A stretch of 63,769 bases of DNA, the filler included, from Folioceros fuciformis (taxonomy: Eukaryota), in the NCBI GenBank assembly GCA_049999805.1. It is 5 parts of 5 records of this genome, joined end to end, with 100 filler letters (N's around TTAATTAATTAA, not from the genome) between each part and the next. Parts side by side here need not be neighbours in the genome. Positions count along the whole stretch, not along the records: positions 58,467 to 61,665 come from JBNGIO010006124.1; 4 more parts are not named here. One strand, written 5' to 3'. The first letter of the stretch is position 1. Each line of letters starts with the position of its first letter. Below the pieces are notes generated by a model that saw only the letters and a program-made list of their open reading frames with translations, ran no database searches and had not been told where the DNA came from. Positions 30,401 through 63,769 of this stretch are shown here, piece after piece. A program made the position numbers and the translations under genes.

Positions 30401-31291
30401 GATATGTCTGAATCATCAATGGAGGAATCCTTGGATGCTCCCACTGAAGACCAAGTGCGCCATTCAGCAAAGGTAACGCTTCAAGCATATACAATCTTGT
30501 TTTTAGAGGCATCATAAAGCTTATATGCTTTAATGCCTTCTATATACCCTAACATCAATAGTTTTTGAGATTTATTAAATAACTTCTTCCGTTTTTCCTT
30601 AGGGATATAGGCGTATGCGATACATCCAAAGATACGCAAGTGGAGTATAGAAGGCTTGCGCCCTGTGAACGCTTCATAAGGGGTAAGACCAACTAACAAA
30701 TTTGTAGGAAGTCTTTTTTTAAGGTAGGTAGAAGTCATAATAGCCTCTGCCCAGTATGGCAAAGGAAGCTGAGCATGATGAAGGAGAGATGATGTCATTT
30801 GCTGCAGTGATAGGTTGTTTCTCTCAGCCACGCCATTTTGTTGAGGCGTATAGATAACTGTAAGCTGGCGACCAATACCCTCAACAGTACAGTAATCCCG
30901 AAACTCATCAGAGGTAAACTCTCCCCCGTTATTTGATCTTAGGGTTTTTAATTGTTTGCCGGTCCATCGTTCCACATACTTGAGATACTCTTTAAAGTAG
31001 CTAAATCATTCATCTTTGTGCTTTAGAATATAAGTTGTAACAAAACGTGTCTTATCATCTGTAAATGTTAGGAAATACTTGCCACCACCAATGGATGCTT
31101 GTGTGAGTGGGCCACACAAGTCAGTATGGACAAGTTCCAAGACATCTGAAGCTCTGTGTGGCTCTTTGTTCTTGAAGGCTGCTTGATGGCGCTTCGTAAG
31201 AGCACAAGACTCACATAGTGGAAGTGGCACAAGAGGACCTATCTGCCCATGCTGGTACAAATCACTTACAGCTAGTTTTTGTAGCTTAACA
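27175..31291 (-). mobile_element. Ty1/Copia retrotransposon #1 (degenerate; 5' end lost in gap): GAG-pre-integrase, integrase, RT, RNase H, 3' LTR
   Basis: LELVHTDLCGP, NGGEFTS, TPQQNGVAER, CKWVFKLK..YKARLVARGFSQ, YVDD, FTDSDYAGD, SRTKHVEVEYH. The domain order is INT-RT-RH, with many stops and frameshifts. Confidence 0.93.
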
Positions 31292-31391
31292 NNNNNNNNN
31301 NNNNNNNNNNNNNNNNNNNNNNNNNNNNNNNNNNNTTAATTAATTAANNNNNNNNNNNNNNNNNNNNNNNNNNNNNNNNNNNNNNNNNNNN

Positions 31392-37210: not shown

Positions 37211-40200
37211 CTCCCTCTTAACCTACGCTGGTTAAAAGTGAAGCTCAAGAGTGAAGAAGAAGGACGAGCTCACACGAACCCCAACTATCACCACGTTTCC
37301 TCGTGACGACACTTCAGTTGCCGTCATTACTTGTCACGATAAACTTCTGTGCCATGGTGATAATTGCGATCACATCCTACATTTGGTTGTTCATTCAGGC
37401 TACAAAGAGGGGACTTGGCGCTTAGCAGAAGTAGGACTTCGACAAATCAGTAGGGGCTTTTCTTCCAATTGCGGCAGTGCGCTACCATCGTCACCATTCT
37501 CTCCTACAGGATGGCATGCAACAGCTTTGACTCCTTGGAGATGGGCAGTAGCAGCATCAAGCATCTGAGAAATCCGCCACCTAAACAGCTTCCTACTCTG
37601 TCATCTCCCTCTGTAACTGGGAAGTCATGGTGGCCAAACAAGGCTAACATGGAGCTGTTGTGGCATCAGATCAAGGCGCTCGAGATGTGCAACGAACTGG
37701 AAGACCTCATCTCATATGCAAAGAAGAAAGCACGGGAACTGGAGGCCCTTTAAGCTAAGAGGCTTGCCGAGGATGAACTGTCGCTACCCTTAACACTTGC
37801 AGAGTATAGTACAGTGATGTGGGAGCCTGAAGAGCTTGGCTACATCCTTTGGTCAGCAACAAGTGAGAGGTAAACCTATCACCTTACAATACTCTAGCAT
37901 GTGATACACTCACGACTAGATTCTGCGCTTAGGCTTCATCCAATGAGGGCATCACAATGTTGACTTGCTATGAATAAGAGACAGTGAGAGCAAGCTCTGT
38001 ATTTCGTGCGGACAACTGGACCAAGTATGGATTATTGAAAACTGGAAAAGCTGACTTGCAAACTGTCTCCATGAAGACTGAACTAGGTAGGTCACGTATT
38101 GGTAGTGGGAATGGAAAATGCCCTCAGCCCAAGGGCTTCTAAGTTTTTGTAATGCTTCTCCTTGGATAGACCCTTAGTAAAGATGTCAGCTGTGTTTTCA
38201 TCTGTTGCCACATAGCTAACCTTAACAATTTCACGATCAACAACATCCCTGATATAATGGTGTTGTATTTCGATATGTTTCATTCTTGCATGAAATTTAG
38301 GATTAGCCACAAGCTCCAGTGCCGACATGTTATCACATAGGATGGGAGTTGGAGCTGTCTACTTCTGTCCTAGGTGAAGGTACGCTCCCACTCAGCCTCT
38401 TTTGAGGCTTCTGTTAAGCTTTTATACTCCGCCTCTGTCGATGATAAAGCTACTGATGTTTGCTTTTTATAGCTCCAATTAATAGCAGCTGAAGACAGCA
38501 GGGAACAGTATGTGGAAAGGCTTCGACGAGATTCTGTATCTGATGCCCAATCTGCATCCGTGAATCCTCTAAGTATAAGCTTTCCTTCATTACTACTTCT
38601 ATAAGCAAGTCCATATGATTGTGTCCCTTTTAGATAGCGAAAGACACGTTTGGTTGCTGTCCAATGTACCATGCCTGGATTTTCCAAGAACTGAGACAAG
38701 GTGCTGACTGAATACTGTATGTCTGGGCGTGTCCAGTTAGCTATAAATATCAAACTTCCAATCACATGCCTGTACGGTACTTGTGCCATCTCCCTTATTT
38801 CATTTGTTGCTTGACGACATTGTAAACTAGTGAGCTTTGTCCCAAGGGCATAGGGAGTAGTAGAAGGTCTAGCCTGTTCGAGTTTAAACCTTTTCAAAAG
38901 TTCCTGAACATATTGATATTGATGAATGAGGATTAGTTTTTCTTCATCATACTCGCAGCAACTAGATTCCTAGGCAGAATTTTAGCTCGCCAGTATCTTT
39001 CATCTTGAACTTATTACTTAGCATCTCTTTTACCTCTACTAACAATGGCTGACTGTTTGTGGCAAGTATGACATCGTCCACATACAGAGTAAGGATCACA
39101 TATTCAGTTCCTTTTGTCAGTTTATAGACATTACTGTCTGCAGAACTCTAGACAAAAGAACTATTTATAAGGTACTCATGAATGGTGAGATTCCATACTC
39201 GACCACTCTGTTTTAGACCATAAATGGTCTTTAGTAGCTTCAGTACTTGCTTAGGGTGTTTAGGATCCTCATAACCTTCAGGGTGTATCATATAAAGATT
39301 CTCATCCAGTGCTCCATATAAAAATGCCGTGCAGACATCCATCTGTTGTAGGTCTAGGTCGAATTCAACTGCGAGGGCAAAAATCATTCTTATGGATTGT
39401 GCTCTCACAACAGGTGAGAATGTCTCTTGATAATCCAGTCCTTCTACCTGAGTGAATCCCCCTGTGACCAATCTGGCCTTATACCTTGCTATCTCTCCCT
39501 TCGCATTAAGCTTTAGTTTGAATACCCAGTTACAGGAGATAGGTTTTCGGCTAGGAGGTAAGTCTACCAATATCCAAGTTTTGTTCTTCACCAGAGAATT
39601 ATATTCTTCGTCAACAGCAAATTTCCATTTGTTCCTTTCAAGTCCTGAGAATGCTTCTGTGAGGGATTTGGGTTCCAGATGTATAGTACTAGATGCAGAA
39701 TGGCCAATGTCTATATATGCTGTCATGAAGTCGATTGACTCATATCTTGGCTCTTTCCATTGTTCTGGTGGAGGGCGATTCCTTGTTGACCTTCTCAAAG
39801 GAGGATCTGGATCCTCATCAGGAGCAACTGGAGCAAGGTCTTCATCATCTCCTTCAGGTTCATATAACTCGTCATTTAAAACTCCCTCAGCTTCGTCAGC
39901 AACTGGGTTTATGGGTGGATCAGCTTGATTTGGATCAGGAATGAAAGCTTGTGGTCGATCAGGTACTAATACAAGAGGAGGAAGTATTGGGTCAACTGGC
40001 TGACCAAGCTAAGGAGGTGGTTGGGTCACTGGCTGACCAGCCTGTACATCTTCCTCATCTTGAGATTCGTCCATTGGAAAATGAGAAGTATTTTCTCCTA
40101 TCTTAGGTAAAGTTACTCCCTTAGCTTTGGAAAACCCTATTGGTTTATCAACCTCAAGAAATGTAACAGTACGTGCTAACACTACCCGCCTGTTCTCAAG

Positions 40201-43200
40201 ATCGAAAAGTTTGTAGGCTTTGGACTGTTCACTATAGCCAACGAAGACAAGTGCAAGGGCTTTGAATCCAGTTTCCTTCTCTTCTCCTCTGGGATGAGAG
40301 CAAAAGTACGAGAACCAAATACTTGTAAGTGCAGCAAATTAGGTTTTTGTTTCCAGAATGCTTCATATGGGGTCTTGGAAGGAATGGAGCTAGTGAAAAG
40401 TCGATTCAGGATGTATGTAGCAGCAGTAATAACTTCAGCCCAATACTCCTGAGATAAGTTTGCCCATAACAGCATACTCCTAGTCATAGACAATAGAGTT
40501 TGATTTTTCCGCTCTGCCACTCCGTTTTGTTGTGGTGTGTAAGGGATTGTGAGTTGACGCTGAATCCCCCTCTCTTGGAGGAGTGTATCAAAAGCATAGT
40601 TCAGGAAATCTGTTCCATTGTCAATCCGGATATATTTAACGAAATGTCTTGTTTGTTGTTCAGCCATCAAAAGCTTGAAGGTCTCACTCTTCAGTTGCAT
40701 TGGATATGTTCAAGTGTAGCGAGAGTAATCATCTGTGATGCATAGGTAATATATGGAACCTCCGAGAGATGGGATTTGTATTTTTCTAGATATGTCTGCA
40801 TGCACTAGTTCTAACACATTCGTGGCTCTATAGGATGCTGCAACTAGAAAAGAATGAGCCTTCTGTTTTGCAACAATGCAAGCTTCACAAGACGTCAGGT
40901 CCTTAAAGACTTGAGGTAAGGGTTCTAAATGACACTCTTGTAGAGACATGTCTACCAGTTTCCGTTTATTAACATAACCAAGCTTGGCATGCCACAGGAC
41001 AGCAAGGCGTTGGGAATGTTTGGAGACTAAGCTTGCCTTATGATGAAGGATACAGATATGAAGTCTATAGAGATCATGATCAAGTGTACCTTTGAACACC
41101 AGCATGGATGGATCTAACCTTTTGTAGAAAAGACAGATATCCTCACTGGCTTTCATGTCATGTATCCGCAATTGCATCAGCTTGCTAAAAGAAAACAAAT
41201 TCTTCGCTATGGAGGGTACATAGAGAACGCCATCCATGGTAAGAATTGATCCATCGTGAAGTGTGAACTTGCACGTCCCACAGCCTAGAATAGGGAGACT
41301 GGAATGGTTTTTTTTATCTCCCAACAGAACTCTTTCAACTGTATTATAAGCTTTCAGCATATAGAACTGATCCTTGTTTTTGCAGATGTGTGTAGTGGCA
41401 CCAAAGTATAAATACCAGCCACCCTCATCACTTATGGATCTAGCGAGGCAGACTGTAAGTATCTTCACCGCTGGTTTGGTGTCACCTATATTCTTCTCCT
41501 TAATCGCAACAGTTGCGGTATTCTTAGGAGTTCTTCGAGGTTCTCCTGCCTTCTTCTTCTTGCATTCTTGAGCTCAATGACCGGCTATGCCAGACCAATT
41601 GCAATTTCCAGGTCGTTTAGATGGGCCAAAGAAATCAGAAGTTTGTATAGGTTTACCTCCTGCCTTGCCTTTTCCTTTGAATGTCCTATGACTTGTTACT
41701 AATGCCTTCTCTGTTCTGCTCTTAGGGGATCCCATCACAAACATTTTGCTCTGCTCTTCCTGGTACAAGGCACCGATTGCCTCTTCAAGGGTGATGATGC
41801 TTACAGTTCCAGCAGCAGCGGCAGCATGTGCAGTCCACATAGGGCCATTCTGGCTAGTAATAAATGACTGGTACGAAGGTGGTAGTCTAGTGAGGAGCTT
41901 AGCAACAGCATCCACTTCACCCATCTTGGTTCCAGTGAGTGATGCAATTTGAGCTTTTAGATGTCGAAACTTGCTTGTGAAGTTCGATACCTTTTCTCCC
42001 TCTCTCATCTTTAGGTTATAGAATTCGTGTTTCACTGCACACAGGGTTAACACGTTTGTGACCTTGTAGGTCTTCTCCAATTGTGACCATATCTCAGAAG
42101 CATTTTCCAGGAATTCGACTTCTGGTACAAGGTCAGCATCCAAGCCTCCAATTAGTAGAGCAATGGCTATGCCATTGCGCTCATCCCACTCAGCAATCTG
42201 ATCTACTGTCGGGGCTGGATTTGCATTGGGATCCCGTTTATTTAAAGTCCCATCCACAATTTTCCATACGCGTCGAGCTATCAAGGTAGCTTTCATTTGG
42301 ATTTGCCAAATTGGGTACCTTGTGCCATTGAAGTGATCTTTCTCCTTCAGTTTTGACATGTATGTTGCCTTGGCAGGAGAGGTGGCCATTACTACAGGCT
42401 GGTTAATGTTGACAGCATGCTATATGAAACTTAGGCTCTGGAACTGACCAATCAAGGCATTTATGGATGCAGTAGAATCTGCGGACATAAGATCTTAACA
42501 AGGTAACTAAGGCTATGGCCCTAGTGACACAAGTTAGTAGCTTAAGCCCACTAGATCTCTTTTCCTTTTTGATTATTTTTGTTCTAACACTAGCATGACA
42601 AGCTAGGATCAAAGGGGAAGGATGAGTTCGAGGGGGAGAGGATACTTAAGTATTCTTGCCTCTTCGTACTCATCCTCCCTTTCATATCCCGTCTATTAAT
42701 GCTTAGTTTAGACTAATAACGTTTTGTAAGGTATGTATGAAAAAATAACTTAATTAATTAATTTTAAAAAGAGCATGTTCTTTCAGCTGAACCCTAACTG
42801 TCACTTCTTAGTGTCTCTTTAGGTGGACCAGTAGCATTTTGAGGGATGCAAAAATGCCAAGGGACACCTCTCTGATTATGACTCTTCAGATTTGTGGCCT
42901 CAGCAACGCCGGGTGTGGGGGCCTTTGGCTCTCCAAGAGCGGAAGCAAGGAAAGGTCATCGAATTTGTGAAGATCTATTGCAATTGGAGGCAGATCCTCT
43001 CAGATTCATATTCTGTGGAAGAACAACAATGCTCTTCATATCTTCTTTTATCTGTTCTGATTCCACAATTGCTGTATGCTCAAGGGAATTTCTTATATCT
43101 TCAATGTTGCTTAGAATCTCTTCTTGACTTTGTAGCAACAAAGATTGAATTTTCTCCACTTGCCTTAGCACAGCCAATTGCCTATAAACCATGTTGGTTA

Positions 43201-48309: not shown

Positions 48310-51300
48310 CTCCCACTTACTGCTGAAACTGTGAATGTTGTGTTGACATAGGTTCTGAAATAAGGCTACGTGAGGAAGAGAGGTGTTGAGAACTGAGGCA
48401 CGCATGAGAGAGGAAGAGCAATTGTCCTATGAGGATAGGAAGAAACGAAACAGTTCAGGTTCCTCTGAAGATTCCTCCAACTCTCAGTCCTTTGAATCTA
48501 GGTTGCTTGGTTCTGACAGCGAAGAAGTGGGCTTCCATGAGTCAGAATCACAGCACTCTGATTTTGAAAGTGAAGAAATGAATTCCCCAAGGACTCTAGA
48601 TTCCATCAACTATCCAACAAGCAACCATTCAAACTCCAACTATAGCTGGGATTAGGCATAGCTTGTTGTTTCCTTTTGTTACTGAGACTCTAGGAAGTCT
48701 TCAGACTTCCCCATACCAAGACTTTTAACATGCCTTGCATGTAGATCCCTTCCAAGGGCTTTGGTAAGTATGTCAGCTGGATTATCAACTGTTGGGATAT
48801 ATTGCAATGTGATTTTTCCAGCTTGCACTAGCTCTCTGATAAAGTGGTATTCCACTTCAACATGCTTGGTTCTTGAGTGAAACACTGGATTTTTGGCTAA
48901 TGCAATTGAGCCTTGGTTGTCTGTGTTTATAGCTCTACAAGTTGGTAAGCTTATGCCCATTTCTTTAAACAATAGCTTGAGCCATACAACTTCTTTAGCA
49001 GCAGCAGTTAGGACTCTATATTCAGCCTCTGTACTGGACAGGGCTATTGTTGGCTGCTTTTTGCTGCTCCAATAGATAGGGCCTCCAGCAAAACAAATAA
49101 CATACCCTGATACTGACTTCCTTCTGTGTATGTCCCCTGCATAGTCAGAGTCAGTATAGACCTCTAGGTCTAGGGCACCCTTTTGATGCTAATACTTCAG
49201 CCTTAAGTCTGCTATACCCTTTAGGTATCTAAACACTTGTTTGAGACTTTGCCAGTATTCTTGACCAGGGTTTTCTAAGTACTGGAATAGCACACTTGTA
49301 GAATATGCTATCTCTAGTCTAGTTGTATTTGAGGCATATATTAATTTCCCTACACCCTTCTTGTAAGGTATGTTAGCCATAGCATCCTTCTCATTTTGTG
49401 TTTCAGGACTCATGTCTTTGTTGAGTTGAAGTCCATTAGGAAGTGGGGTTGCTGCAGGTTTAGCATCCTTAAGCCCCATTTGTTCAGCACTATCTAGGAT
49501 GTACCTAGGCTGAGTTAGAGTGATAAGTCTTCTACTCCTATCTTGCTGAACATGTATTCCTAGATAGCCGTGAAGTGGTCCTAGGTTTGTCATCTCAAAT
49601 TTAACTGCTAACAGTCCATTCAATTCTAGAATGTAGTTAGGGCTGTTGCAAACTAATATCAGGTCGTCTACATAGACAACCAGATAGCAAACCACTTCAC
49701 CTTTCCTTTGGACATACAAACTGCCATCAGCCTTACATTTCTCAAAGCCTAAAGTCTGAAGCTCTTCATCAAGGGCTTCGTTCCACTTTAGAGCTGACTG
49801 TTTAAGGCCATATAGAGTTTTCTTCAAAAGAAGAACATGATCCTCTTTCCCTTTAACCTCATAGCCTGGTGGCTGCTGCATGTAGATTTCTGTGTCAAGC
49901 TTCCGATGAAGGAAAGCTGTCTTCACATCAAATGTTTGTAGCTCATAGTCTTTGAATGCAGCTACTGCGCAGAGAGTTCAAAAGGTAGCCATCTTTACAA
50001 CAGGTGCATATGTCTCAAAATAGTCAAGGCTTGGTACTTGGGAGAAGCCTCAAGCAACAAGGCGAGCTTTGTACCTATCAAAGGTACCATCAGCCTTCAC
50101 TTTGAGCTTGAATACCCACTTGCAAGACACCATTTTTTTTCCTGGAGGTAATTCAGCAAGTTCCCAAGTGCCATTTTTTATTAACGAGTCATACTCTGAC
50201 TATATGGCCTTTTTCCATTCTGTTGAATCAGGTCTGTGAAGGGCTTCTTCATAAGACTGAGGTTTCACAAGGAGAAAAGAAGAAGCTGCATGAGCTTGTG
50301 GCCGAAAGTGTTGTGACTGGTAATAATCAGGGGCTCGGCGGATCCTTGCAGGTTATCGACGCTCAGGAGGTGGATTAGGTGTTTCTTCAACATTTGGAAG
50401 AATGGTAACATCTTTAGGATCAGCTACACTCAATTCTTCAGGTATAGCATCCTCAGTGTTAGGAGCAATTTCAGGATGTGGCTCTTGTATGTTATCATTT
50501 TCAGCTAATACAATCTCCTCCACAGGATCAGCTGCAACTGTGTCTGGTTCAGCAACATCTTCCCCACCTACAGGAGTAGCATCCTCATGAGAAGAATCCT
50601 CAAAGTGTGAAACAGCTGGAAGTGCTGAAAGTTCATCTTCAGCAGCATCTGGAGTTGAGTAACCACCTAGTTGAGTAACTCCCACTGCCCAAGGAACCCG
50701 TTCATCAAAGGTAACACTTTAGGAGTAAATTGCTTGATCTTTTGACACATCATAAAGTTTGTAAGCTTTAATTCCTTCAGTATAGCCCAGCATCATTAAC
50801 TTCTGTGCTGTGTCTAAGAGTTTCTTACATTTCTCCTTAGGAATAAAGGAATAAGCTACACAACCAAATGTGCGAAGATGAAGCACAGAAGGCTTGCGTC
50901 CAGAAAATGCCTCATAAGGAGTCATCCCTACAACTGCATTAGTGGGTAATCTGTTACGTAGATAAACTGCTATAGATAGTGCTTCTGCCCAATAAGGCAA
51001 AGGGAGGTGAGCATGATGAAGTAAAGAAGATGTCATCTCCTGCAAAGTTAAGTTCATATGCTTAGCTACGCCATTCTGTTGTGGAGTGTACACTACTGTC
51101 AGCTAACGTCCAATGCCTTCATCTGCACAGTAGGACTAGAATTCCTTAGAAGTGAATTCCCCACCATTGTCCGAGCGAAGTGTCTTGAGCTGCTTCCCTG
51201 TCCAGCGCTCTACAAACTTAAGGTAAGTTTTGAAATGTGAAAAGCATTCACTCTTAGCCTGAAGGATGTAAGCTGTAACATAACGTGTCTTGTCATCTAT

Positions 51301-53324
51301 AAAGGTGAGAAAATATCTCCCACCACCCAGGGAAGGTTGTGACAATGGTCCACATAAGTCAATGTGGACAAGCTCCAAGACCTCTTAAGCTCGGTGTGGA
51401 TTCTGGTTTTTAAAAGCTGCTTGGTGCCTCTTAAAGAGTACACAGATTCACAAAGAGGTAAGGTGACCAAAGGTCCAATTGGCCCATCAGCATAGAGGGT
51501 GCTTACAGCTAACTTCTGTAACTTTGCACTATGTGGATGGCCAAGCCTAGCATGCCACAGCTGACTCTTTGCTACTTGCTGTGCAGAAGCTAGGGCACTA
51601 TCTTGTGTAAGATGAGAAGTAGGCTTCCCACTCCGAGTATGAAGACGAAACAGGTCATGATCTGATGATCCATAAGCCAAAACCTTGCTACGATCATAAG
51701 CATCTATCACCTGACATTCAGTAGTTGTAAATAAAACATGACTGTTGTTATCTGAATTTAGTCTTCTAACTGAAACTAAGTTTCTGGTCATGTCAGGTAC
51801 GTAATACACATCATTCAAAATTAGTGTAACTCTAGATGGGACCAACAGGTGCACTGTGCCTATGCCAGGGGAGACTAGTGAACGATCATCCCCAAGGTAA
51901 ACATATTGATCCTTAGCTGACCTATATGTTTTGTAAGCATTTTTGTCAAAACAGATATGTGCTGTTGCACCTGTGTCTAAGTACCTTTCTGCTAATGGTC
52001 TTATCTCTATCTTTGTAGATAGGCAAGTAGGGAGCAGAAGTGGGTTAGAAAATTCCCTTGTACTCACAGTGAGAGCAGAAGGAGTGTTATTTTTCTTTAC
52101 CACCACATGATTTTGAACTGGACTGCTTTCCTTACGAGGCTGGCCACCTTGTTTCTTGCGACACTCACACTCCCAGTGTCCTGGCATTTTGCACCAGTTG
52201 CAAGTGCCACTTCTTTTGACACCAGGTTTCTTAGTATTACTTGTTGAGGGTCCAGATTGAGAGCTACTGCCTCTATAAGTATTTGCACTTCCTCCCCGGA
52301 AGTTGCCTCTCATACCTCCTCCTCTACCCCTTCTTGAAGTGTAGAGGGCTTGCTGCCTCCCAGGTCTTCCACTAAGAGTGCCTCTTGTAGCTTCCTCCTA
52401 TAGTAGAGCTCCCACTAACTCAAAAAATGTAACCTCAGGGAGCTTAACCTTGGCTACCTCGGCAAACTTCTCAGATTGCATTTGAGAGGTGTTGAAAGAT
52501 GTCACAAAATGTGACCAGGAGGGTGGCAAAGAAAGTAACATGTACATAACCAAAAGTTCATCCTTCAAAGGCTCCCTAGAAGAACTTTCCAGCTTTGAAA
52601 CTAGGGTCCCTGAAATGCCCCACATGCTTCTCAATAGATTCTCTTTCCTTCATCTTAAGGTTGTGGAGATTTTTGAGAGCAGTCATCTAGCTTGTAGTAT
52701 TAGAACCAGAGTACAGATCCTGGAGACGATTCCACACATCCTCAGCAGTGTCAGCTCCAACAGTCTGCCTTAACATGTCTGATGTTAAGCCACTTCGGAG
52801 CAGATACAAGGCTGCGTCGTTTTTTACTGTCCATGCATCTTTGTCTTCCTGCCTTGATGATGTTGGTTTCTCCGTTCCTTCTGTAATTTTCCAGAGTTTC
52901 TTAGCCTGGAGGGCTCCCTTCAATTCTCATAACCCATATATCATAGTCATAACCTCCAAATCTGTCCTTCTCTTTGAAGGTATCATATGAAATGGCAATG
53001 GAGGTAGAAGCTGGGTCTGCCATATTGGAGGTATATGTGCTTGTAGGGTTAACGTTAGGCACTGCATCTATGTCAGTATCTAATTCAACATCACTATCAT
53101 GCTCAGATGCAGACATAGTGTGGAGGCAAAACCCCGGGCACTGATTGCCGACGGGTTCCACCTTTAGTGGCCACACTTATCCCACTGTCGTTGAGACATT
53201 GGGTTTCGTTCCCACGAAGGAGCGATGGGGTTCCTTGCTGCTGTGGATGGAGGGTCGGACTTGATCAACTCGATGATGGATTCGAGGGCTCCCCTCCAGC
53301 TCCGATCAGGCGTAGGACAGGCCT
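48310..53324 (-). mobile_element. Ty1/Copia retrotransposon #3 (degenerate, related to #1): gag with zinc knuckle, protease, integrase, RT, RNase H
   Basis: CNWCKMPGHWECEC, YLDTGATAH, LWHARLGH, ELVHIDLCGP, VERWTGKQLKTLRSDNGGEF (shared with #1), YVDD, SRTKHVEVEYH. PPT-like ctcccactta at 48310. LTRs were not recognised and the 5' end lies in the gap. Confidence 0.93.
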
Positions 53325-53423
53325 NNNNNNNNNNNNNNNNNNNNNNNNNNNNNNNNNNNNNNNNNNNNTTAATTAATTAANNNNNNNNNNNNNNNNNNNN
53401 NNNNNNNNNNNNNNNNNNNNNNN

Positions 53424-54425
53424 NGTGAGCCAAAGCTGGTAGGTTTCATCGCTCTGGCCCTGCCCCGCGCGCACCGGGTACGACATGAAGCGGCCGATAT
53501 CGCCCTCTGCAGTTCCATCCACGATGAGGCTGCGCAGGTGCGCGTTGTTGTTGAAGCGAAGGCGGGCTGCGTCCAGCGGGGTGGAGGACGCGAAGCCAGT
53601 GCGCACTGAGTCTTTGATTAAATTGACCACCGTGGGCGTGACCTCCGGGCGATGGCGCGCGTCTCGGTAGGGACTGTACAGGCCGGGGTATTCTGTGGGA
53701 TTCCGAAAGAATTTTGGGAGAGTATGGGGGAGGTGGGTGAAGTGCGGGCTCTGGTTATCCCAATTCCAGAATGGCAGCGCGAAGGTGTCATCGCCCACCA
53801 GTCTGGCCAAAATCCTCTCGAAGAAGAAGGTGTACCTGGTGATCCACGTCCAAACATCCATGAGGCGTCATGGTTAGGGCTGTGCACAATTGCGATCAGC
53901 ATATGCATTGACTGAATAGCGTGTGGGATGGAGGAGGTGGGAGGCGGGAGCTCACCAGCGGTGGAATGGCAGGAAATACCAGTTGCCGTGAATCCCGTAC
54001 GCGAGATCAGGACGACCGAGTTGGTGCACCACACCGGGACCGTAGACGCAGTGGAAGTTCATCTGCTGGAAAAGAGACCTTGGGTCAGAGCTGGGCAGCG
54101 CCTTTATGATCTGGAACGCCCGGTCCAGCTGCCGAATGTAGGTCTCGTTCTCGGCGATGAGGTGCGCGGCAGGCCGCACCCTCGGCTTGGCAGGGAGCGG
54201 GTTCTGCTCCAAGTACTGCTTCCAGGTCTTGTACTCCGGCTCCGGCTGCCTTATCAATTTGGTGAGCGTGCAGCAATTGGGCCGCAGGTGCGGCCCACCC
54301 TCGAGGATGGTGAACTCCGGCCGTGGATTGCAGTCCGCGAAATCGGCCTGCATCGGCGCCGCTCTTGCTCCGCCTCCGGCCCACGCCACCAGCAGCAGGA
54401 TCCGGAGTAGAAGGAAACCCACCAT
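53424..54425 (-). CDS. PPO: Polyphenol oxidase/tyrosinase (type-3 copper), N-terminal half; 3' end in gap
   Basis: Signal-peptide-like MVGFLLLRILLLVAWAGGGARA, then NCC, RVRPAAH, KALPSSDPRSLFQQMNFHCVY, CuA IHGNWYFLPFHRWYTFFFERIL, FALPFWNWD. GT-AG intron at 53955-53836 (120 bp). Confidence 0.92.
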
Positions 54426-55286
54426 CCAGCCTCCACCGCCGCACACCACTCCAGCTGCAAGCAAACTGTAGGCTGAGGGTTGCAGGGTGGAGATGGGAGT
54501 TGGAATGGCATCAATGTGCTGTGCCACAGGAGGAAGCTTGAAGCTCGACCAGCGTCCAAATCGAGGCCCTCTCGCCCCAGATCCGAGGCCCGTCTAGCGT
54601 TTATGTACCCACGAGACTTGGTGGGCGGTCGGTGACGGGGCAAAGATGTGTGCCCTTGTGCTGCCTGGAGCATCAGCCGCTGGGTGCAAGCCCCTGATCC
54701 ATGGTGTTGCGAAAACAAGGGGAAGCCCGCGGCCAGCAACGTGGGGCCCGCCTCGGCCGGTACGAAGGGTGCCCGACTCACCACGGCACACTCATCCCCA
54801 CGCCAATCTACTCACGAGCAACCAGCCCAAACGTCGCTCTGCCAATTTCCAAATTCGAAAGTCTTGCGTGGTCTGTTGTCTGCCCTTCGTTTTACCCGTC
54901 GCTAACCAGGTTTTGGGATTGAAAGAGAAGGACGGGGGACCCTTCACCGCCGTCAAAGGCACCCCTCCAGAGATGCCCAAACCAGCATTCGTTGCCTTTG
55001 CCCTCTATACTTGCATCCACGGCATTCGATCGACAGGCTGCAGGTGAATGGAAATTGCATAAACTACGCTCGAGCGTTCCAGGCTGGTGAACTGATCATT
55101 GCTCCAGCGTGACAGTGACGATGACCACACGTTATGTAACAAGGCCCGGCAGATTTCCCATTTATCATGGCTGCATGTTGTAGTGGCCATTTCGCAGTCT
55201 CCATTTCCATGTGTTGCCGTGTGGGATTTGCATATTATTGAGCATCTAGCTCGAACTTGACTCGCCTGATTTGTGCTGTATTTGGG

Positions 55287-55411
55287 TGATGGATCGGTGG
55301 TTTCCGTTGTATTTATTGGATGTGATGGATCGGTGGATTCCGTTGTATGTATCGGATGTGATGGATCGGTGGTTTCCGTTGCACGTATCGGATGTGATGG
55401 ATCGGTGGTTT
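55287..55411. repeat. 36-bp tandem repeat, ~3.5 copies, upstream of PPO
   Basis: Unit gtgatggatcggtggwttccgttgyaygtatcggat. Confidence 0.85.
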
Positions 55412-56499
55412 ACATTTCTCCACTTGTGTATGTCTGTCGGGCCGTCCGAAGGTCCCCGCACCCCACATCTACTGTAACATTTTTGCAGCCATAATGGGTC
55501 TAGAACTACCAAACCGCAAAGCTCCAACGAAACTTCTCACGCGCATCGCGGCCTTTCAATCAACACGTGTGTATAGGGGCCTTTTAATGACACCCGCACA
55601 CTCTGCATCCCGACACGTCCGGTCTGCCTGCAATATGGGCCCACAAGTCGGCAGCAATCATACGGTTGGGGCATTACTTGGGCATCTTTAAATATTTGGA
55701 GCACTGCAGTTTCTTTTTCTTTTTTATCAGAAAGTGTAGTGACTAAAGCCGTCTACGACGATTTAAAGAGCTTTTTTTTTTTTTTTTTTTTCTGTACGTA
55801 GATCGGAACGCCTTTCGATTTTTGAATAATTTATTGTTATTGCACACATAAATCAACTGGCATTGGACTAGGTAAGGCTCTTGTTGGTCACCTTTCCAAA
55901 GACAAGCCCAGCATGTAGCCTACAAAGGAAAGGCCAGTGGACTTCGCTCTACCGTCTATGTGCCAAAAGCTAGGCCCATTCGAATTTAACTACGTGATCT
56001 AGCCTGGGCAATATGAAGCAGGACACAGTCACATGGATTTGCCATGTACATGATACCCATGGTAACATACTATGAAACTCAATGCAATTACAAGATACTC
56101 TTGTTGGGCCCTCCCTTCTTCCTCTTCCTCTTGCTCTTCAACATTCGCTTCGCGCTTCGTCAAACATGTGCGTGAAAGCGCCCTGTAGAGGTTGGTTTTC
56201 ATGAGTCCTTACATTGGTTCTAGATGTTGATCTTTGAGGGTTGCCTTCCACTACTACTTGGATTTCCTGTGTATCGTCAACAGCATCTCATATACCTTAG
56301 CTTTGATGAGCTCTTATGCCCGTAGTTGTAGAGTGCCATCACGTTTTCAAGAGAATCCATATGCCAATATAAATGTTTATGAAATAATAAGTCGATCTAG
56401 TTTTGCCGCACAACGGTTGCGCTACTATTTCCCATGCCTCCTAGTTTCTCGTGACAAGCATATCTCCTCCACAAGATATCTTCCTTCAAAGGCATTAAC

Positions 56500-57900
56500 A
56501 TTTTCTGTTACCCACTATTGCATGAGAAGGGATGGTTCTAGAGTTATAGAATCTACCTTTTCGACATGAGCACTCCAACAAGGCCCATTCTGATCATCAC
56601 TGTCACACGGCACCGCAATCACATCGCCTTGTTTGATTTTGACATTGACTTCAAGCTTCGCACCCTCCAATGGAGTTGTCATCATGGAGCAATATGGTCC
56701 TAGATTCATGTGTCTTAGCTCTGGCAGCCTTCTACCTGCTTCTTGTTCAACATGAACAGGATAATTATTTGCCCGTATAGTACGGTTTGTCTCTTCCTCC
56801 CTATTGTACCATACCCAAAAAGCGTTTAATTGTTGCTGCTCTCCATGGACGATTTTATGGGTGTTATCCTCCTACGACATTCGAAATGACTACTGCCACC
56901 ACTCCTTATCTTTATTGCTTAGATATTTTACTATCAAGACTTTGAGGATTTTTTTCTAATCTATGCCAAAAAATGTAATGGTCCATTACATTTTTTGGAC
57001 TCTTATCCAAGATTTGAGTCCTGTTGCTTCCCATGAATCTAAAGTGAACAAAGTGGTGCACCAACAATAGGAGTGGTAGAAATCTATGATAAAAATTCAA
57101 GACCCTCCAATGGCTCTTACTGGGAGATATCAACAATTGCTTTCCATATCAAACTATTACCATCTCCCCTCCGCATCGTTCCTCCCATATTTATTGTGAA
57201 CTAATGGTGGTAGCTATGATTATGTATGTTTATAGACCACTGCGTCATTCACTCATACCATTTGGCCAAACCTAACATCTAAAGTCCATAACATTTGTAA
57301 TAATTTGCATATTCGAATTCGGCGTGTACAATTGTGTTATGAGTTGCAACATAATACCCAAAGATAGAGCCTTCTTATGTTTAAGCATTTTGGGAAAGCA
57401 AGAGAACATTTGGTCAACTGCATAATACATATGGCTGATCATCAAAAATCCAATCTTGATCTTTTCAAAAATACCTTTCTCTACCAACATATACAGATAT
57501 GCAAACAAAGCATATTCTTGTTTTCTCGTGCAATATTGTCGTGTTATAGATAAAACATCTATGGCAATACCCCCTCGTAGTTAGAAACGACATCCTATAT
57601 GATATGAATATACAACATCCTATATGATATGAATATTCAAGTTGGCATCATTTTGAATGTTCAGGAAGTTATGAAATACCTTCGTTCTCATTCTCATATT
57701 GTAGACAAGGGAGCCCACTACATGCATGTGAATGCTCTTTGCAAAATCCTTTGGAGGTCTAGTGAAACGGGGTAGTTCCGTTTTGCTCTGGTCCATTCCA
57801 TCTATTGTCATCCTAATATATTGACTGGCTCGACCTTGACACTTTAGTCGATGCTTTCCCAACTTTGCTCTCTCTTCCTTAATATGATCTTAATGCTCTC
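56500..57900 (-). mobile_element. Decayed DDD-type DNA transposase (Sola-like/DUF7869-like)
   Basis: MTIDGMDQSKTELP, HVVGSLV, DANLNIHII, LP*MFYL*HDNIARENKN, LVEKGIFEKIKIGFLMISHMYYAVDQMFS. This matches my recollection of the DGMDQ / DN..RENKN / GHTHEDVDQ.FS motif series. Many stops and a 28-bp duplication at ~57590-57645. Confidence 0.65.
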
Positions 57901-58466
57901 ATAGCTTTTCTTCGTGGAGTTTTGGAAATAGACAACATACATTGATTATGAATGTTACATGCACAACATCAATTACACCGTAGGCAAAGTTATTGGCTGC
58001 AGTCGTTGACAAGGCTAAGTCCACGCCACATAGGGCCATGGTGCCCACTTGGGCGCAACATGACCAAGCGAAACATGCTAATGTTGTCGAGGCTCAACCC
58101 CTTCCTTTCGCATTGAAGAGAAAAAGAGTCGATCCATTAGGAGAGGTGTGGGCAAGCGCATCTGGTACCCCTACCAGGCACCCGCTCACATATATCGTGG
58201 CCACATCAATCCCACGGTCGTTGTAGGCTTCCTCGGAATTGCGACATCGGCGAAAAGCGACATCGGCGAGAAGAGATTCGTCCAGCCCGCTAATCAAGAC
58301 GGCGCGTGCAACGTAATTCAGGTTCGCCCACTTGTCCTTTTCTTCTTGTGTGGCAGATTGTGCCGGNNNNNNNNNNNNNNNNNNNNNNNNNNNNNNNNNN
58401 NNNNNNNNNNTTAATTAATTAANNNNNNNNNNNNNNNNNNNNNNNNNNNNNNNNNNNNNNNNNNNN

Positions 58467-61400
58467 GCCACGGTTGCGTGCCGCTTCATCCATTGCTGCA
58501 AATTGGCGTGCAGTCTCCGGAGAGAAATCATCCCCTTCCTCCCTCCTTCTCTTACGTGTACGTACTGGACTGAGGTCCTCCTCCACTGACTTCAAGGCCC
58601 TCAAGGCGCCATCAATCCTACTGACAAACTTCTCAACATCTTCTTCAGTGAGGGGGGCTTCTGGAGTTTGTAATGCCATGTGCAGCGCCTCTCTCCAATC
58701 AGTAATGGCCTTGTTCACACGACCTTCAAATGCCTTCACTGCATCAGCAACCCGATCCGATCCTGGAATACCTATTGTTCGGTGTTCTCGCGCGGCTTCT
58801 TCCAGTTTCAGTAGAAATTTGGCCCTCCCAAATGGCTCCATCTCGTATTTTGCACGTATGTCACAAAGTTCCTTGTCCTCAGTGCACTTATCCCCAGCCT
58901 CAGCTAATGGGTTCGAATATTTGGCGGGAATTCTGAAGAACCTTCCCTTCTCCAAACTCCAATGGCCTCCAAAGTTCCTACAGAATAGCTCACGCTGCAC
59001 GTCATTCTCTATGGCGCGTGCCCGCGACTCCACCTCAAAGTCGGACGTCATCCAAAACATAGCATCCACCAACGTAGATGTATACATATCGTGTCGCTGC
59101 GTCTCGGGGTCCCACTGCATCGGTTTTCCCCAGAACTTGTAGTTCAAGAACATGTGAGGCTCCTGGTCCAAAGGGAGCGTCCATCGATTGTATTCGTGGC
59201 CATGCGGCATCTTGTCAAGGATCCCATACAACTCATAGAGCCTTCGTGGAAGTGGAGCTCCACAACACATGCAAGAAGGTTTCCGGATTGCAACACGTGT
59301 CAGACAAGTTACATGGTACCTGTGCCCACACGTGCCCAACTGAAAACATCCTTCCGGTCCAAACCCTTCTAAACATAGAGCGCATGTGGACTCATCCATC
59401 ATCCATTTTGGAGGATAGCCTGGATGCACTACCGCCTTCAAATCGGGGTCCAAGTCCGCGGTCTTTACTGGGTATGGAGTCCAGCCTTCCTCCACTTCGA
59501 TGGCCCAGTTCACAGCCCCTTTTCGATTCTCGTTGCTATGAATCAGCCTCTCCATCATCTTTGCTTCGTCTGCCCAATGTGTAACGACTGGAGGGGGTGC
59601 ATCTGCTAGCCACGCCTTAGAATCTCTTGGTGCGTCGCCGATGCTGCTTACGCTGCTTGGACAAAGTAGTGCTCGCATTGCTAACTTCTGCTTAGCAAGC
59701 ACAATTCGCTTCTCCTTGACATTCGCATTGAATGCCCAATTGAGCCATGTTGTTGCCTCTGGCAAATCAGAAGTTGGGGCATCTACTATGGAGGACTTCG
59801 TGATGTCTGCCACTCGCTTCTCCGCCGCAGCAGCCACTGCTTGGTTGAATACGATATGCTCGTGCTCCGTACGTACATCTTTCAACTTGCCCTCCTCGAT
59901 GAGTACTTGTACACGGCTTTCGGCCTCCTTCAAAACATCCCTTTCAAATGTTGCGTCAATGAAGGCTGTCTTCCCTATACGGATCCCTTCTTCAATCTTC
60001 ATTCGGATCTCTGCTCTTTCCTTTGCTACTTGCTCCTTCACTCTTTGAGCAATCTCCGCACCAACCCAAGTCTGGTGAAGCTCGTGTGGTTGTTGCATTT
60101 GGAGTTCGAGCTCAGATGTTTCTCCAATGGGCTTTGCATTACTTAGGGCCAAGTCATCTTCAACGGGCAAGCGTATTCCCTCGTGCACCAGAGTTGTGGC
60201 TAGTGCTCTTCTCGGAAAGAAGCTGTGGTCCAAAGGCAGAGACAGCTGCTCCTCAGAATCCGTGCCAATGCCTACGGGACTACAGGATACAACAATACCA
60301 GTACGGGGAGGTCGTAGCTGCCCTTTCCTTCGTCCAGCATTTTTGTCTGGACTATCTCCGAGAACCTCCTGCGTTAGATTGTCCACCATATTTCCAACAG
60401 CTTGCTCGTCCACCGTTCGCTGCAAGTCCTCAATTTTTTTCAGCAAGCGCTGCACCTCGGCCTTGTCTTCGTTGCTACTGAAAGAGGACCTCTGTAGCCG
60501 CATTGCCTTCTCCGCCTCGTACATCTGGGTGACTTCTCGAATCTGTGCTCGGCATCTATCCAAGTCGTCATTCCTATTTTCCAGGGCACTCTCCGCGGAT
60601 GATAAGGTCACTTGTATCACTTCCACATCAAGGCGCAACGCTGCGGCTTCTGCATTGGCATTATTCAACTTGATATTCAAAGCATCCACCTCCTGATGCA
60701 TGCTTTGAACATCTACTTTTGTGGAAGATGATGCAAACGTGCCGTCGAGTACATCCGTGCGCAGCTGTGCTAATTCAGACTCCAAGGCCTCATTCTTTTG
60801 CCTCAGCTGTTGCAAATCCTGTACTGCCTTGTCATTTTCCTGAGCTTGGAGGTTGTACAGTTCGAGCTCACGCTTCTTCTCTTCGACTTCTACTTGTAGC
60901 TTACGAGAAATAACCTTCAAGCCCTCAAGAGCAACCCGGGGATCCTCGAAAGTGTCATCCATCCACTCAGCTCGAGTTTGGCTTCCTTCGCCCAGCTGTA
61001 CACCTCCACATGGTTGTACAACTTCTGCTGTTTCCAGTGCAACAACCGCAGGAGCATTAACTTCAACGGCAGGTTCCGCGCCACTCCCATCAGCCCCCAT
61101 TGGAATTCTACCCGTTGCAAGCGAGTCAAGATGCTCGATCCCAGGTACATATGAATCCACAATGTCACAACGATCATAGGATGATCGCGAAGATGCCTTC
61201 TTAGTAACAATGGTCTTCCAATCCACTTTTCGATGGAGTATGAGTTCGGCGTACACCATGGCCAACAAGTTGTAAGATGCTTTGGCTTTTAGGGACTCGT
61301 TCCCAGGAAAGAGTACTTGAGTCACTTCTAACAAGCGATGCTTGAAGTGAGGGTCCTTGCATGTGCGAGTACGGGCCACCCCTTGTTTGTGGTGTAATTC

Positions 61401-61664
61401 CCAGCGATGCTCTGGAAACACCTTATCGATGTGGTACCACTTTACAAACTTCTTGGCATCTGCTGCCCTCCAAATCATACCATCCGGCTCCATATCCCAG
61501 CCAACCTCAGCAAGCACATTTGGATCATTTGTTATGTCTTTTCGAATTGGATGCGCTTTACCCTTCGGCCTTGACTTCTGTCGAGCTGCACTCGGCGAAG
61601 AGGGCCCTGATCCCTCCAAACTTGCTAGTACTTCATACGGTGAAGGACTGCCTGGGCCATCCAC
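58467..61664 (-). CDS. Large uninterrupted ORF (>1,050 codons, both ends in gaps): helical N-domain, long coiled coil, RING-H2 finger
   Basis: Stop-free for 3.2 kb. Coiled coil LKVISRKLQVEVEEKKRELE...KKIEDLQRTV; RING-H2 CALC...CGHRYHVTC...CMCC; NLS-like RTRKRRR. Confidence 0.75.
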
Positions 61665-63057
61665 GNNNNNNNNNNNNNNNNNNNNNNNNNNNNNNNNNNN
61701 NNNNNNNNNTTAATTAATTAANNNNNNNNNNNNNNNNNNNNNNNNNNNNNNNNNNNNNNNNNNNNATTGCACTCCCTCTTCGCCCAATTTGTGAATTCTT
61801 CCTAGCTTCACCCCACATCCAGTGCGTGCAGTCTGGTGCATCAGGGAATAGCCCTGCTGCCCACTGAGTGGTACTGGTTGATCTCCCGCGCCACTAACTT
61901 GTACAGTATGATGTTCAATTTCATCATGATGGACGATTCGAGCCATCTGCTGTTATCAGCACCTTGTGTGAATGTCCAAGACTAGGCCACCACACATCCA
62001 TCCGGGCTGAATCGGATGCTTGTTTCACCTTCCAAGTAAACTGTGAGCAAGCCCCACGGCAACACGTAAGGGTCCTCCAGTGGCAGCAGTTGGCACTCCG
62101 GCGCCAAGGAAGAGAAGATGGTGCACAATAATGTCACACAGTCACTGTGGAGCATGTGTTGTTTTCAGGGCCAAGGCATAGACCTAGTTAGCGGCCAAGC
62201 CTCTTGCACTCGCAGGAGACTGAACAACCAGCTTGCCTGACTCAACGTTCAACTTGGGATCAATGGATGTGCTCTTTCCTCCTAAAAATGTTCACTATCC
62301 CACTCTCACTCGTCGGCTTCGCAACCTGCTTGGATTCACCATGCGCCTGTAGAGCCCTAGTGTAGGCAAAGTAACTCCCTAGGCTTGCGATCGACTGATG
62401 GGAGACTATCCCACGAGGCTTCCTGGTTATCCAGGATGCACTGAAGTGAGGTGGTCCAGGATCGTGACCCCTGCCAGTGCCACATGAGGGGAGGGCTGGC
62501 GTCAGCTGCTGTCATATGTGTGCGACAGGAACACAAATCGTTGGTGTGCGAGTTGCAATGAAACAAGCGCCGCGCCCTGTGGCTGGACGGCATGGTAGCC
62601 ACAGTTCTAAATGAAACCAGCTTCCCCATGCTAAGGACTCGAGGATCTGATGATGCACAGTCACCTCCGTGACTCCCGAGGCCAGCCAGTACTGCCACAT
62701 GCGGGGAAAGGAACTGGACGGCTTCCCGGAAACCTACCTGTTCCACCTCAGAGACGCACACTGTATTTTTCTATTTAGTTTTAAGAGATCGGAGATCCCG
62801 TGACCCCGTGAGGAGAGGGGAAGAGCCCGGAAGAGGGTCCAAAGGGGGAAAAGAAAACGGGGCTTTGACTGGAAGAAGGTTCGCCGTGAACACTACTCTG
62901 ACAAATGAAGCTGCAGTGGCGTGATCCGTCCCAAAGCTGACCGGCGTCACACGGTTGTCAAACTCCCAAAAAACGACACGGGTCTGGTCTCTGCCGGCGT
63001 CAGCAGTTAGCACTCCTCCTGGCTGCAGCAGTCTCTGGTCCCGTTACGCATCCCAGC

Positions 63058-63307: not shown

Positions 63308-63769
63308 ATGGCTCGCTATGCCGCATCCCGGAATTTGAATCTCATGGCGGCCGCGTTCCTGGCCGCGTTGCTGGTCACCTGGACGCCCCACTTCAGTTTG
63401 GCAGCCGACGAGGACCCTCTCCAGGACTTCTGCGTGGCCCAAGCGGGCGCTCCCACCATCAACGGCGTCGTCTGCAAACCAGCCGATGAGGTGACGGCAA
63501 CCCACTTCAAGTTCTCGGGCCTCAACGGCCCCGGCAACACCGGCAACAAGTTCAAGGCTGCAGTGACGCCCGCGTCCGTCGCCCAATTCCCGGGCCTCAA
63601 CACGCTGGGGATCTCCGCCGCCCGCATTGATTTCGCTGTGGGCGGGCTCAACCCTCCGCACTCCCACCCGAGAGCCACCGAGCTGCTGTTCGTGGTGGAG
63701 GGCACTCTCGAGGTTGGATTCGTCTCGTCTAACGGGAACACGCTCTTCCAGCAGACGCTCAACAAGGGC
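63308..63769 (+). CDS. GLP: Germin-like protein (cupin), runs off window end
   Basis: Signal peptide, box A DPLQDFCVA...NGVVCK, FPGLNTLGISAARIDFA, germin box GLNPPHSHPRATELLFV. It is absent from the ORF track because there is no stop in the window. Confidence 0.95.
   Translation, partial: MARYAASRNLNLMAAAFLAALLVTWTPHFSLAADEDPLQDFCVAQAGAPTINGVVCKPADEVTATHFKFSGLNGPGNTGNKFKAAVTPASVAQFPGLNTLGISAARIDFAVGGLNPPHSHPRATELLFVVEGTLEVGFVSSNGNTLFQQTLNKG

Follow-up and report, generated by a model that had tools for sequence, protein, structure and literature searches.

The closest described counterparts of the gene analysed here are of kinds already known, RING-H2 ubiquitin ligases and accessory proteins of transposable elements (TEs). 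The gene occupies positions 58467-61664 of a 63,769-nucleotide stretch of DNA from the plant Folioceros fuciformis (assembly GCA_049999805.1), to which we refer in its entirety as the window, and it encodes a protein, P0001, with a RING-H2 finger. RING-H2 E3 ligases (zf-RING_2; EL5, RNF12, RNF165 and RNF13) have the same C3H2C3 pattern and spacing, and the predicted fold of the P0001 finger agrees with theirs to a root-mean-square deviation (rmsd) of 1.3-2 Å. In P0001, however, the finger sits deep in a protein of 1100 residues, between segments rich in Trp and other aromatic residues that match no known family. The TRIM/RBCC proteins resemble P0001 in joining a RING to an extended helical rod and to a distinct conserved domain that might choose targets, and in being fast-evolving and multi-copy. 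The order in P0001 is nevertheless reversed, with the RING C-terminal to the rod, and Pfam finds neither a B-box nor a SPRY match, so the parallel would be one of logic and not of membership.

On the side of mobile elements, a RING in a transposon-derived protein has a precedent in RAG1, the Transib-derived recombinase whose N-terminus holds a RING E3 domain. In RAG1 the RING shares its polypeptide with a DDE recombinase core, whereas no catalytic transposase domain was found in 149 members of the RING family scanned with Pfam (the scan leaves out P0048, an array of eight RINGs matched via the finger alone). The plant mobile domain of MAIN and MAIL1 (PMD, PF10536) has no match in P0001 at E ≤ 1, and the only likeness put forward is the '...VDW' motif named in the sequence-only reading. 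VANC, of the Arabidopsis VANDAL transposons, is not known to be a RING protein; it sits beside a transposase gene, whereas none was found with the RING family. The targets of VANC are often tandem repeats in noncoding TE regions (PMC5735166). P0001 would resemble VANC if its N-terminal domain bound repeats by its own gene, where relatives carry GCGGACG and 61-bp arrays.

Our best single reading, one that we hold to be an even call, is that the RING gene belongs to a selfish repeat whose product would be an E3 ligase. It is favoured by the repeat-like behaviour of the gene, by how diverse the family is, by the lack of annotated-proteome entries among the members looked up and by a promoter that travels with it. 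New are the N-terminal (N) domain, the Trp-rich surroundings of the RING and, possibly, a repeat unit with an E3 as its sole gene.

The open frame and the protein it encodes

A single stop-free frame fills the whole 3199-bp piece at 58467-61665, and its own start and stop are absent. The sequence-only reading had described an intact frame; the 1066 codons on the minus strand do run without a stop, but the frame is cut at both ends and is in that sense not intact. Alignment with full-length relatives shows P0001 to be short by ~18 N-terminal and ~40-45 C-terminal residues, with no frameshift. The ratio of observed to expected CpG is 0.73 and the GC content at third codon positions (GC3) is 0.50, host genes in the window having 0.50-0.56 (the pentatricopeptide repeat, PPR, gene) and 0.78 (the polyphenol oxidase, PPO, gene). 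The piece holds a real, near-complete and still open copy of an undescribed intronless gene family. With 251 matches in the protein library at E ≤ 1e-3, a chance open frame is excluded, and we have little doubt that the protein is the product of a real gene under selection. Its features are as follows.

58467..61664, minus strand: frame open over 1066 codons (P0001), truncated on either side where the piece stops; near-complete copy of a ~1120-codon gene
61539..61583, minus strand: N-terminal basic stretch, residues 28-42, resembling a nuclear localisation signal (NLS), a putative function; relatives likewise are K/R-rich just ahead of the N domain
61218..61547, minus strand: N domain (residues ~40-149), conserved and for the most part helical by model and family matches
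60360..60947, minus strand: charged helical rod poor in Pro and Gly, residues ~240-435, coiled-coil-like (composition and periodicity)
58467..59756, minus strand: conserved C-terminal (C) region, residues 637-1066 (invariant columns and model)
59262..59384, minus strand: RING-H2 finger, residues 761-801, C-x2-C-x14-C-x-H-x2-H-x2-C-x10-C-x2-C
58920..59252, minus strand: aromatic-rich post-RING segment, residues 805-915, with invariant motifs; 16.2% F/W/Y
58575..58877, minus strand: C-terminal helical bundle, residues ~930-1030; modelled helices with a predicted local distance difference test score (pLDDT) mostly >85
58542..58562, minus strand: basic cluster RTRKRRR, residues 1035-1041, NLS-like (putative function), at a position kept in relatives with the consensus RKRKR

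The order of parts that had been proposed beforehand, a helical N domain, a rod, a RING-H2, an aromatic-rich segment and a basic NLS-like cluster, is borne out. The basic clusters near the two ends may direct nuclear import.

The N domain was modelled from residues 20-180 with a 37-sequence alignment and comes out as a small, mainly helical domain (pLDDT 88.8, predicted template modelling score 0.82). Fold searches returned no convincing relative from the PDB with Foldseek (best E 3.4), a best Z of 2.9 against 48,161 PDB representatives with VIA-align and a best E of 1.6 in BFVD; the ESM Atlas had no usable match. A profile of the domain found nothing among PDB sequences either (best E 3.1). 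These null results are not proof of a new fold. No Pfam family matched the N domain in P0001 or in its N-domain relatives. The likeness to PMD and Transposase_32 modules that had been suggested from the sequence was not recovered, as P0001 has no such Pfam match at E ≤ 1 and none of the 37 N-domain relatives matches PMD or any other TE family at E ≤ 0.1.

The rod, residues ~240-435, contains 0-2% Pro plus Gly and 50-70% E/K/Q/R/D/L, with a moderate 3.5-residue periodicity and a weak match to the coiled-coil Pfam family KxDL (E 0.015). Both its length and its sequence vary among relatives, where it falls in variable alignment columns. A prediction of self-association between two copies of residues 236-440 scored 0.14 against a mark of 0.32, which speaks neither for nor against oligomerisation.

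Conservation is concentrated in the C region, within which fall 70 of the 72 invariant columns of a seven-sequence alignment (A1). The region runs from a Trp-rich pre-RING segment through the RING-H2 and the aromatic-rich segment to the helical bundle and the basic cluster. Its model (residues 625-1066, 53-sequence alignment) has a pLDDT of 75.4, rising mostly to 80-97 from the RING onward. All eight zinc ligands, C761, C764, C779, H781, H784, C787, C798 and C801, are invariant in 7/7 aligned sequences, and the C3H2C3 pattern with its spacing of x2/x14/x1/x2/x2/x10/x2 is canonical. In the relative P0104 the finger scores 28.6 bits against zf-RING_2, above the Pfam cut-off, and a match at E ≤ 1e-4 is found in 24/149 relatives. 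The modelled RING superimposes with Foldseek on RNF165, RNF12 and EL5 (5d0i_B, 6w7z_B and 1iym) at an rmsd of 1.3-1.6 Å over alignments of 47-50 columns (prob 0.96-0.99). With VIA-align, many RING chains align to model residues ~127-197 at Z 5.4-7.5, among them HOIL-1L (Z 7.5), RNF146 (Z 6.8) and HRD1 (Z 6.2), and the RING fold matches overall have an rmsd of 1.3-2.2 Å. Sequence search of the protein against the PDB returned weak RING matches only (best RNF24, E 0.0035), and in the ESM Atlas the C region met generic RING clusters only, at 0.87-0.89 and so under the mark of 0.9. For the post-RING aromatic segment VIA-align found generic matches but no clear one, and for the C-terminal helical bundle only generic helical matches (Z ≤ 6.6). 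As modelled, the protein has the cross-brace fold of a RING, and it is probably an active E3 ligase.

Relatives, promoter module and copies in public runs

Two full-length relatives, P0002 and P0003, of 1122 and 1124 residues, share 65-66% identity with P0001 in a word-based search, which also returned three more distant ones. Full-length relatives measure 1061-1270 residues and have the layout of P0001, that is, a basic N-terminus, the N domain, a rod poor in Pro and Gly, a C region with a C3H2C3 RING-H2, and a KRKR cluster. An exhaustive HMMER search, in a library clustered at the 50% level, yielded 251 representatives at E ≤ 1e-3, 113 at E ≤ 1e-10 and 26 at E ≤ 1e-30. Among 188 proteins searched with the two ends of P0001, the N domain matches 77 stretches and the C region 104, and the two occur together in 13 proteins of 732-1270 residues; the architecture is therefore conserved down to ~33% identity. 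No relative was found in 2.9 million viral contigs or in 185,579 prokaryote genomes, and PHROGs gave no match. Roughly 60 cluster members were looked up, and every one came from ENA, JGI, Logan or SRC, with none from NCBI or UniRef, an absence that would fit annotation pipelines masking the family as a repeat. The contigs that carry members consist mostly of the open reading frame (ORF) plus 0.2 to ~1.9 kb. A limited search of open-access text found no literature on such a family.

The N domain also occurs without the RING. Dozens of proteins of 344-578 residues (within P0062-P0149) match the RING-bearing members in their basic N-terminus and N domain and continue into unrelated tails, Gly/Tyr/Pro-rich, low-complexity or helical, several of them ending in acidic Ser/Asp/Glu runs like those of the RING-bearing family. 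Word search found only 3 shorter N-domain relatives. Because dozens of RING-less proteins share it, the N domain is a module found in more than one architecture.

Three metagenome contigs encoding relatives, L001, L002 and L003, show the gene with some of its surroundings. L001 has an intact frame of 1287 codons. L002, whose DNA is 86% identical to that of L001, has a frame cut at its 5' end, and purifying selection is evident between the two copies (ratio of nonsynonymous to synonymous rates, dN/dS, of 0.35 over 639 codons). In L003 the copy is split by a stop into 675 and 255 codons; its DNA has little likeness to L002, in one short stretch, and nothing detectable in common with L001. The L001 gene is preceded first by a 61-bp tandem repeat (8.4 copies), then by a GCGGACG array with TATAAA and lastly by a leader of ~260 bp, which runs up to the ATG. 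The motif occurs five times in L001 at 532-600, in both orientations within 70 bp around TATAAA, and nine times in L003 at 67-238, within 170 bp directly before a TATA-like box and leader. It is absent from L002. Since the GCGGACG/TATA module is shared by the diverged L001 and L003, the gene travels with a similar promoter module, and the arrays are possibly a shared regulatory or recognition module. At L003 60-250 the GCGGACG motifs are interleaved with ATTGG motifs, which resemble a CCAAT box. The window itself contains 0 matches to GCGGACG, with 1.5 expected by chance, and the upstream region of the gene lies outside it. The 770 bp that follow the L002 stop hold no recognised TE features.

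Copies were followed in public sequencing runs. Twelve are listed, with no RNA run among them, and four were placed against the ORF piece, X1 and X3 from organisms A and C, which are closest to the window, and X5 and X6 from organisms E and F. Four organisms of one study share 82-97% of the 31-mers of the piece, and two others share 49% and 25%. X1 is the best-matching run, with 0.97 of the words, and is possibly from the window's own organism. Contigs of X1 and X3 extend past the piece by 0.24 kb at the 5' end and by 1.4-2.7 kb at the 3' end, so the gene continues there as it does in relatives.

In organisms E and F the gene is a high-copy, decaying family derived from an ancestor copy that was once under purifying selection. 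X5 yields 372 contig pieces and X6 7348, at 85-100% identity to the window copy; this view consists of contig pieces on the ORF, with flanks lying outside it. By likeness (≥99, 95-99, 90-95 and <90%), the pieces number 60/63/111/138 in X5 and 1133/2385/2975/855 in X6. Among the changed places C>T plus G>A make up 306/679 in X5 and 98/251 in X6, with 121 and 59 reverse transitions, a bias of the kind that deamination of methylated cytosines in silenced repeats would be expected to leave. Synonymous changes account for 21/40 of the best-supported differences to the X5 and X6 copies, against ~22% expected. Diverged pieces with internal deletions and frameshifts occur in both runs, and single-contig 1-bp indels are present in X6. 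There are 73 internal joints, and the 15 listed are all skips in X6; head-to-tail "back" joints are few in both X5 and X6, of depth 10-110 and inside the ORF. A high-copy decaying repeat in two organisms fits the gene of a selfish element, and to this extent the earlier proposal of a RING-H2 transposon accessory protein is supported. The link that it drew to the neighbouring transposase-like remnant is not.

Contig make-up of the window

The window contains four identical separators, at 31292-31391, 53325-53424, 58367-58466 and 61666-61765, each consisting of 44 N, TTAATTAATTAA and 44 N. Two of them bound the RING gene.

58367..58466, no strand: artificial separator of the above make-up, adjoining the gene on its 3' side
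61666..61765, no strand: artificial separator of the above make-up, adjoining the gene on its 5' side

This 12-mer, with its stops in all six frames, is documented in PMC539331 as a contig separator for pseudomolecules of unfinished genomes. The pieces between separators descend in size, from at least 31291 through 21933, 4942 and 3199 to at least 2004 bp, which suggests a concatenation of contigs sorted by size. Continuations beyond the separator were looked for, and none was found, for the polyphenol oxidase (Tyrosinase) gene cut at 53425 and the copia integrase cut at 31291; the missing ends of the RING ORF were likewise not found on the adjoining pieces on either side. Given the separators and the cut genes without continuation, the record is therefore a concatenation of contigs, and adjacency or relative orientation across separators is no evidence of linkage. 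The sequence-only reading had itself pointed to N gaps between the ORF and the transposase; the two belong to different contigs, with an artificial separator inserted between them. The claim that they are co-oriented loses its footing, since the DUF7869 remnant lies on another piece and neither orientation nor adjacency is established. The case shows that neighbourhood arguments across the separators of this record are unsafe.

The transposase-like remnants in question match DUF7869 (PF25273) at 57272-57889 (minus strand, E 2e-17) and 56515-56871 (minus strand, E 0.018). They form one frame broken by stops, through decay or introns, and a 25-bp tandem duplication lies inside the remnant at 57587-57636. 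A limited search of open-access text returned no literature on DUF7869. No such gene was seen at L001-L003, with at most 0.9 kb of flank each. The specific proposal, in which the ORF would serve the neighbouring transposase as an accessory gene and carry a PMD-like domain, found no support from the separators, the Pfam searches or the region 55000-58366, which contains no inverted repeats.

Beyond the ORF the window looks plant-like, with host-type genes and repeats. The plant genes are the polyphenol oxidase at 53425-54593 (minus strand), cut by the separator, a germin-like Cupin_1 gene at 63308-63769 (plus strand) that runs off the window end, and a PPR gene at 21757-23614 (minus strand). 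Ty1/copia remnants lie at 30481-31291, 39148-42419, 49189-52397 and 58094-58366 (RVT_2, gag-pre-integrase, SH3-like and gag-like), and CpG is strongly depleted in the copia remnants of the window (observed/expected 0.15-0.42), in contrast to the 0.73 of the RING ORF. A minus-strand open frame that encodes repeated peptides like T-T-[DE]-x-T-D-P-S-H-P-I includes a 36-bp tandem repeat at 55286-55416 (3.5 copies, 93% matches). Between 31400 and 36000, GC content reaches 0.61 with a strong positive GC skew of 0.25-0.27, and low-complexity open frames overlap on both strands. Gaps of another kind, plain runs of 100, 100 and 10 N, occur at 6302, 32206 and 34676.

Competing explanations and a candidate mechanism

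Several observations weigh against the reading of a selfish repeat with an E3 ligase gene. Terminal repeats, target-site duplications and unit ends were not seen, so mobility itself is a supposition. Pfam detects no transposase, reverse transcriptase, integrase, helicase or PMD domain in the 149 family members, no TE enzyme domain was found in the flanks (up to 0.9 kb) of L001-L003, and no longer fused form turned up among 3124 candidates, the last being weak evidence. The 63.8-kb window holds no second copy or fragment of the ORF. In X1, 2 contigs at ≥85% likeness differ from the piece at one place, and in X3, 3 contigs at two places; each run has one variant and no diverged copies. The abundance in X6 is seen as a summed word depth of ~10^5-5x10^5, contig depth not being copy number, and the kinds of run that X5 and X6 represent are not on record. 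Every contig that covers codon 917 (S917, place 58915) has a stop there, 6/6 in X5 and 30/30 in X6, which fits passenger amplification of one dead copy. On the side of the protein, the finger of P0001 scores 23.7 bits against zf-RING_2 (PF13639; E 6e-05), below the Pfam cut-off of 27.3, and E3 activity is something that we infer from the fold and the ligands alone. Of the properties that define a TE, neither defined ends nor a mobility enzyme was found, the ends of the unit lying outside the sequence examined; this weakens the statement that the unit is a TE, not the statement that it behaves as a repeat.

Many of these points are those expected of a lineage-specific host gene, or a long-domesticated one, encoding a fast-evolving RING-H2 E3 and single here, with the copies in E and F being a pseudogene amplified as the passenger of some other repeat. 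This is the alternative that we take most seriously, although we judge it unlikely. Besides the single variant of X1 and X3, the stop common to all X5 and X6 contigs at S917 and the lack of a TE enzyme domain anywhere in the family, it would account for the intact frame, for CpG and GC3 values like those of host genes in the window and for the excess of synonymous differences. It sits poorly with a family so diverse that 251 representatives remain at 50% clustering, and whose ~60 members looked up include no entry of an annotated NCBI or UniRef proteome. Against it also count the intact and broken copies in other samples, the promoter motif array kept by relatives that share little other DNA, and the pieces ≥99% alike among hundreds to thousands of diverged ones. 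A tandem array with a unit of ~4.5-5 kb and one intronless ORF would resemble the human macrosatellites D4Z4/DUX4 and RS447/USP17, whose units have one intronless ORF. The size of most family contigs (ORF plus 0.2 kb to ~1.9 kb), the few head-to-tail back joints in X5 and X6 and the high summed depth are compatible with such an array, but the back joints are of low depth (10-110) and inside the ORF, the 770 bp past the L002 stop do not reach the upstream repeats or promoter of the 86%-identical L001, and X1 and X3 contigs go 1.4-2.7 kb beyond the 3' end; we regard it as very unlikely.

Two further explanations start from the isolation of the piece. If a contig of another organism, be it a symbiont, a contaminant or a virus, had been concatenated into the plant record, the piece would be bounded by separators and have no gene in common with its neighbours, as is the case, and its relatives might come from metagenome or raw-run assemblies only, as they do. 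GC3 and CpG like those of the plant genes of the window, the absence of relatives from the viral contigs, the prokaryote genomes and PHROGs, and the 82-97% of 31-mers shared by four organisms of one study make this highly improbable. The reading that we find least credible, and come close to dismissing, is that of an accessory gene of a DNA transposon comprising the DUF7869 remnant at 57272-57889 within shared terminal repeats. Both lie on the minus strand as deposited, with ~0.6 kb and the separator between them. They are, however, different contigs joined by an artificial separator, in a record whose descending piece sizes suggest sorting, and a copia gag-like fragment (58094-58366) intervenes. 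The 3' end of the ORF has no continuation on the neighbouring piece, no inverted repeats were found in 55000-58366, and DUF7869 matches 0/149 family members.

If the RING gene does belong to a selfish repeated unit, the following mechanism may be envisaged. The protein, of ~1100 residues, consists of a basic N-terminus, an N domain of ~110 residues, a rod of ~190, a variable linker and a C region of ~430, and would be nuclear. The RING would recruit E2~ubiquitin, so that the protein would act as an E3 ligase, while the N domain would choose what is targeted, be it a host protein or a DNA motif, and the rod may oligomerise the protein. The gene would be the cargo, possibly the sole gene, of a unit that carries its own promoter, made up in two diverged relatives of the GCGGACG array and a TATA box and in one of them also accompanied by the 61-bp tandem repeats. 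On this reading the single intact variant of X1, with its undepleted CpG, would be a copy that is either young or still selected. Anti-silencing by ubiquitination is something that we infer purely by analogy. A bolder version, which we consider a long shot, is a new plant selfish unit with an E3 as its sole gene, whose N domain would read GCGGACG or tandem arrays, or a bound silencing factor, and whose RING would ubiquitinate chromatin or silencing proteins. Such a unit would amount to counter-defence of a TE by ubiquitination, with a logic like that of VANC and an added catalytic arm, and the N-domain-only relatives would then be a wider family of sequence-targeting modules.

Should the gene prove to be carried by a repeat that is selfish or mobile, plants would provide a rare example of a repeat that codes for a ubiquitin ligase, whether in place of a mobility enzyme or simply with none, and the product of the gene would be a candidate counter-silencing or host-manipulating factor. 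The N domain and the Trp-rich segments have no Pfam family, solved relative or annotated member among those checked. Independent of mobility, the family is a clean new protein family to characterise.

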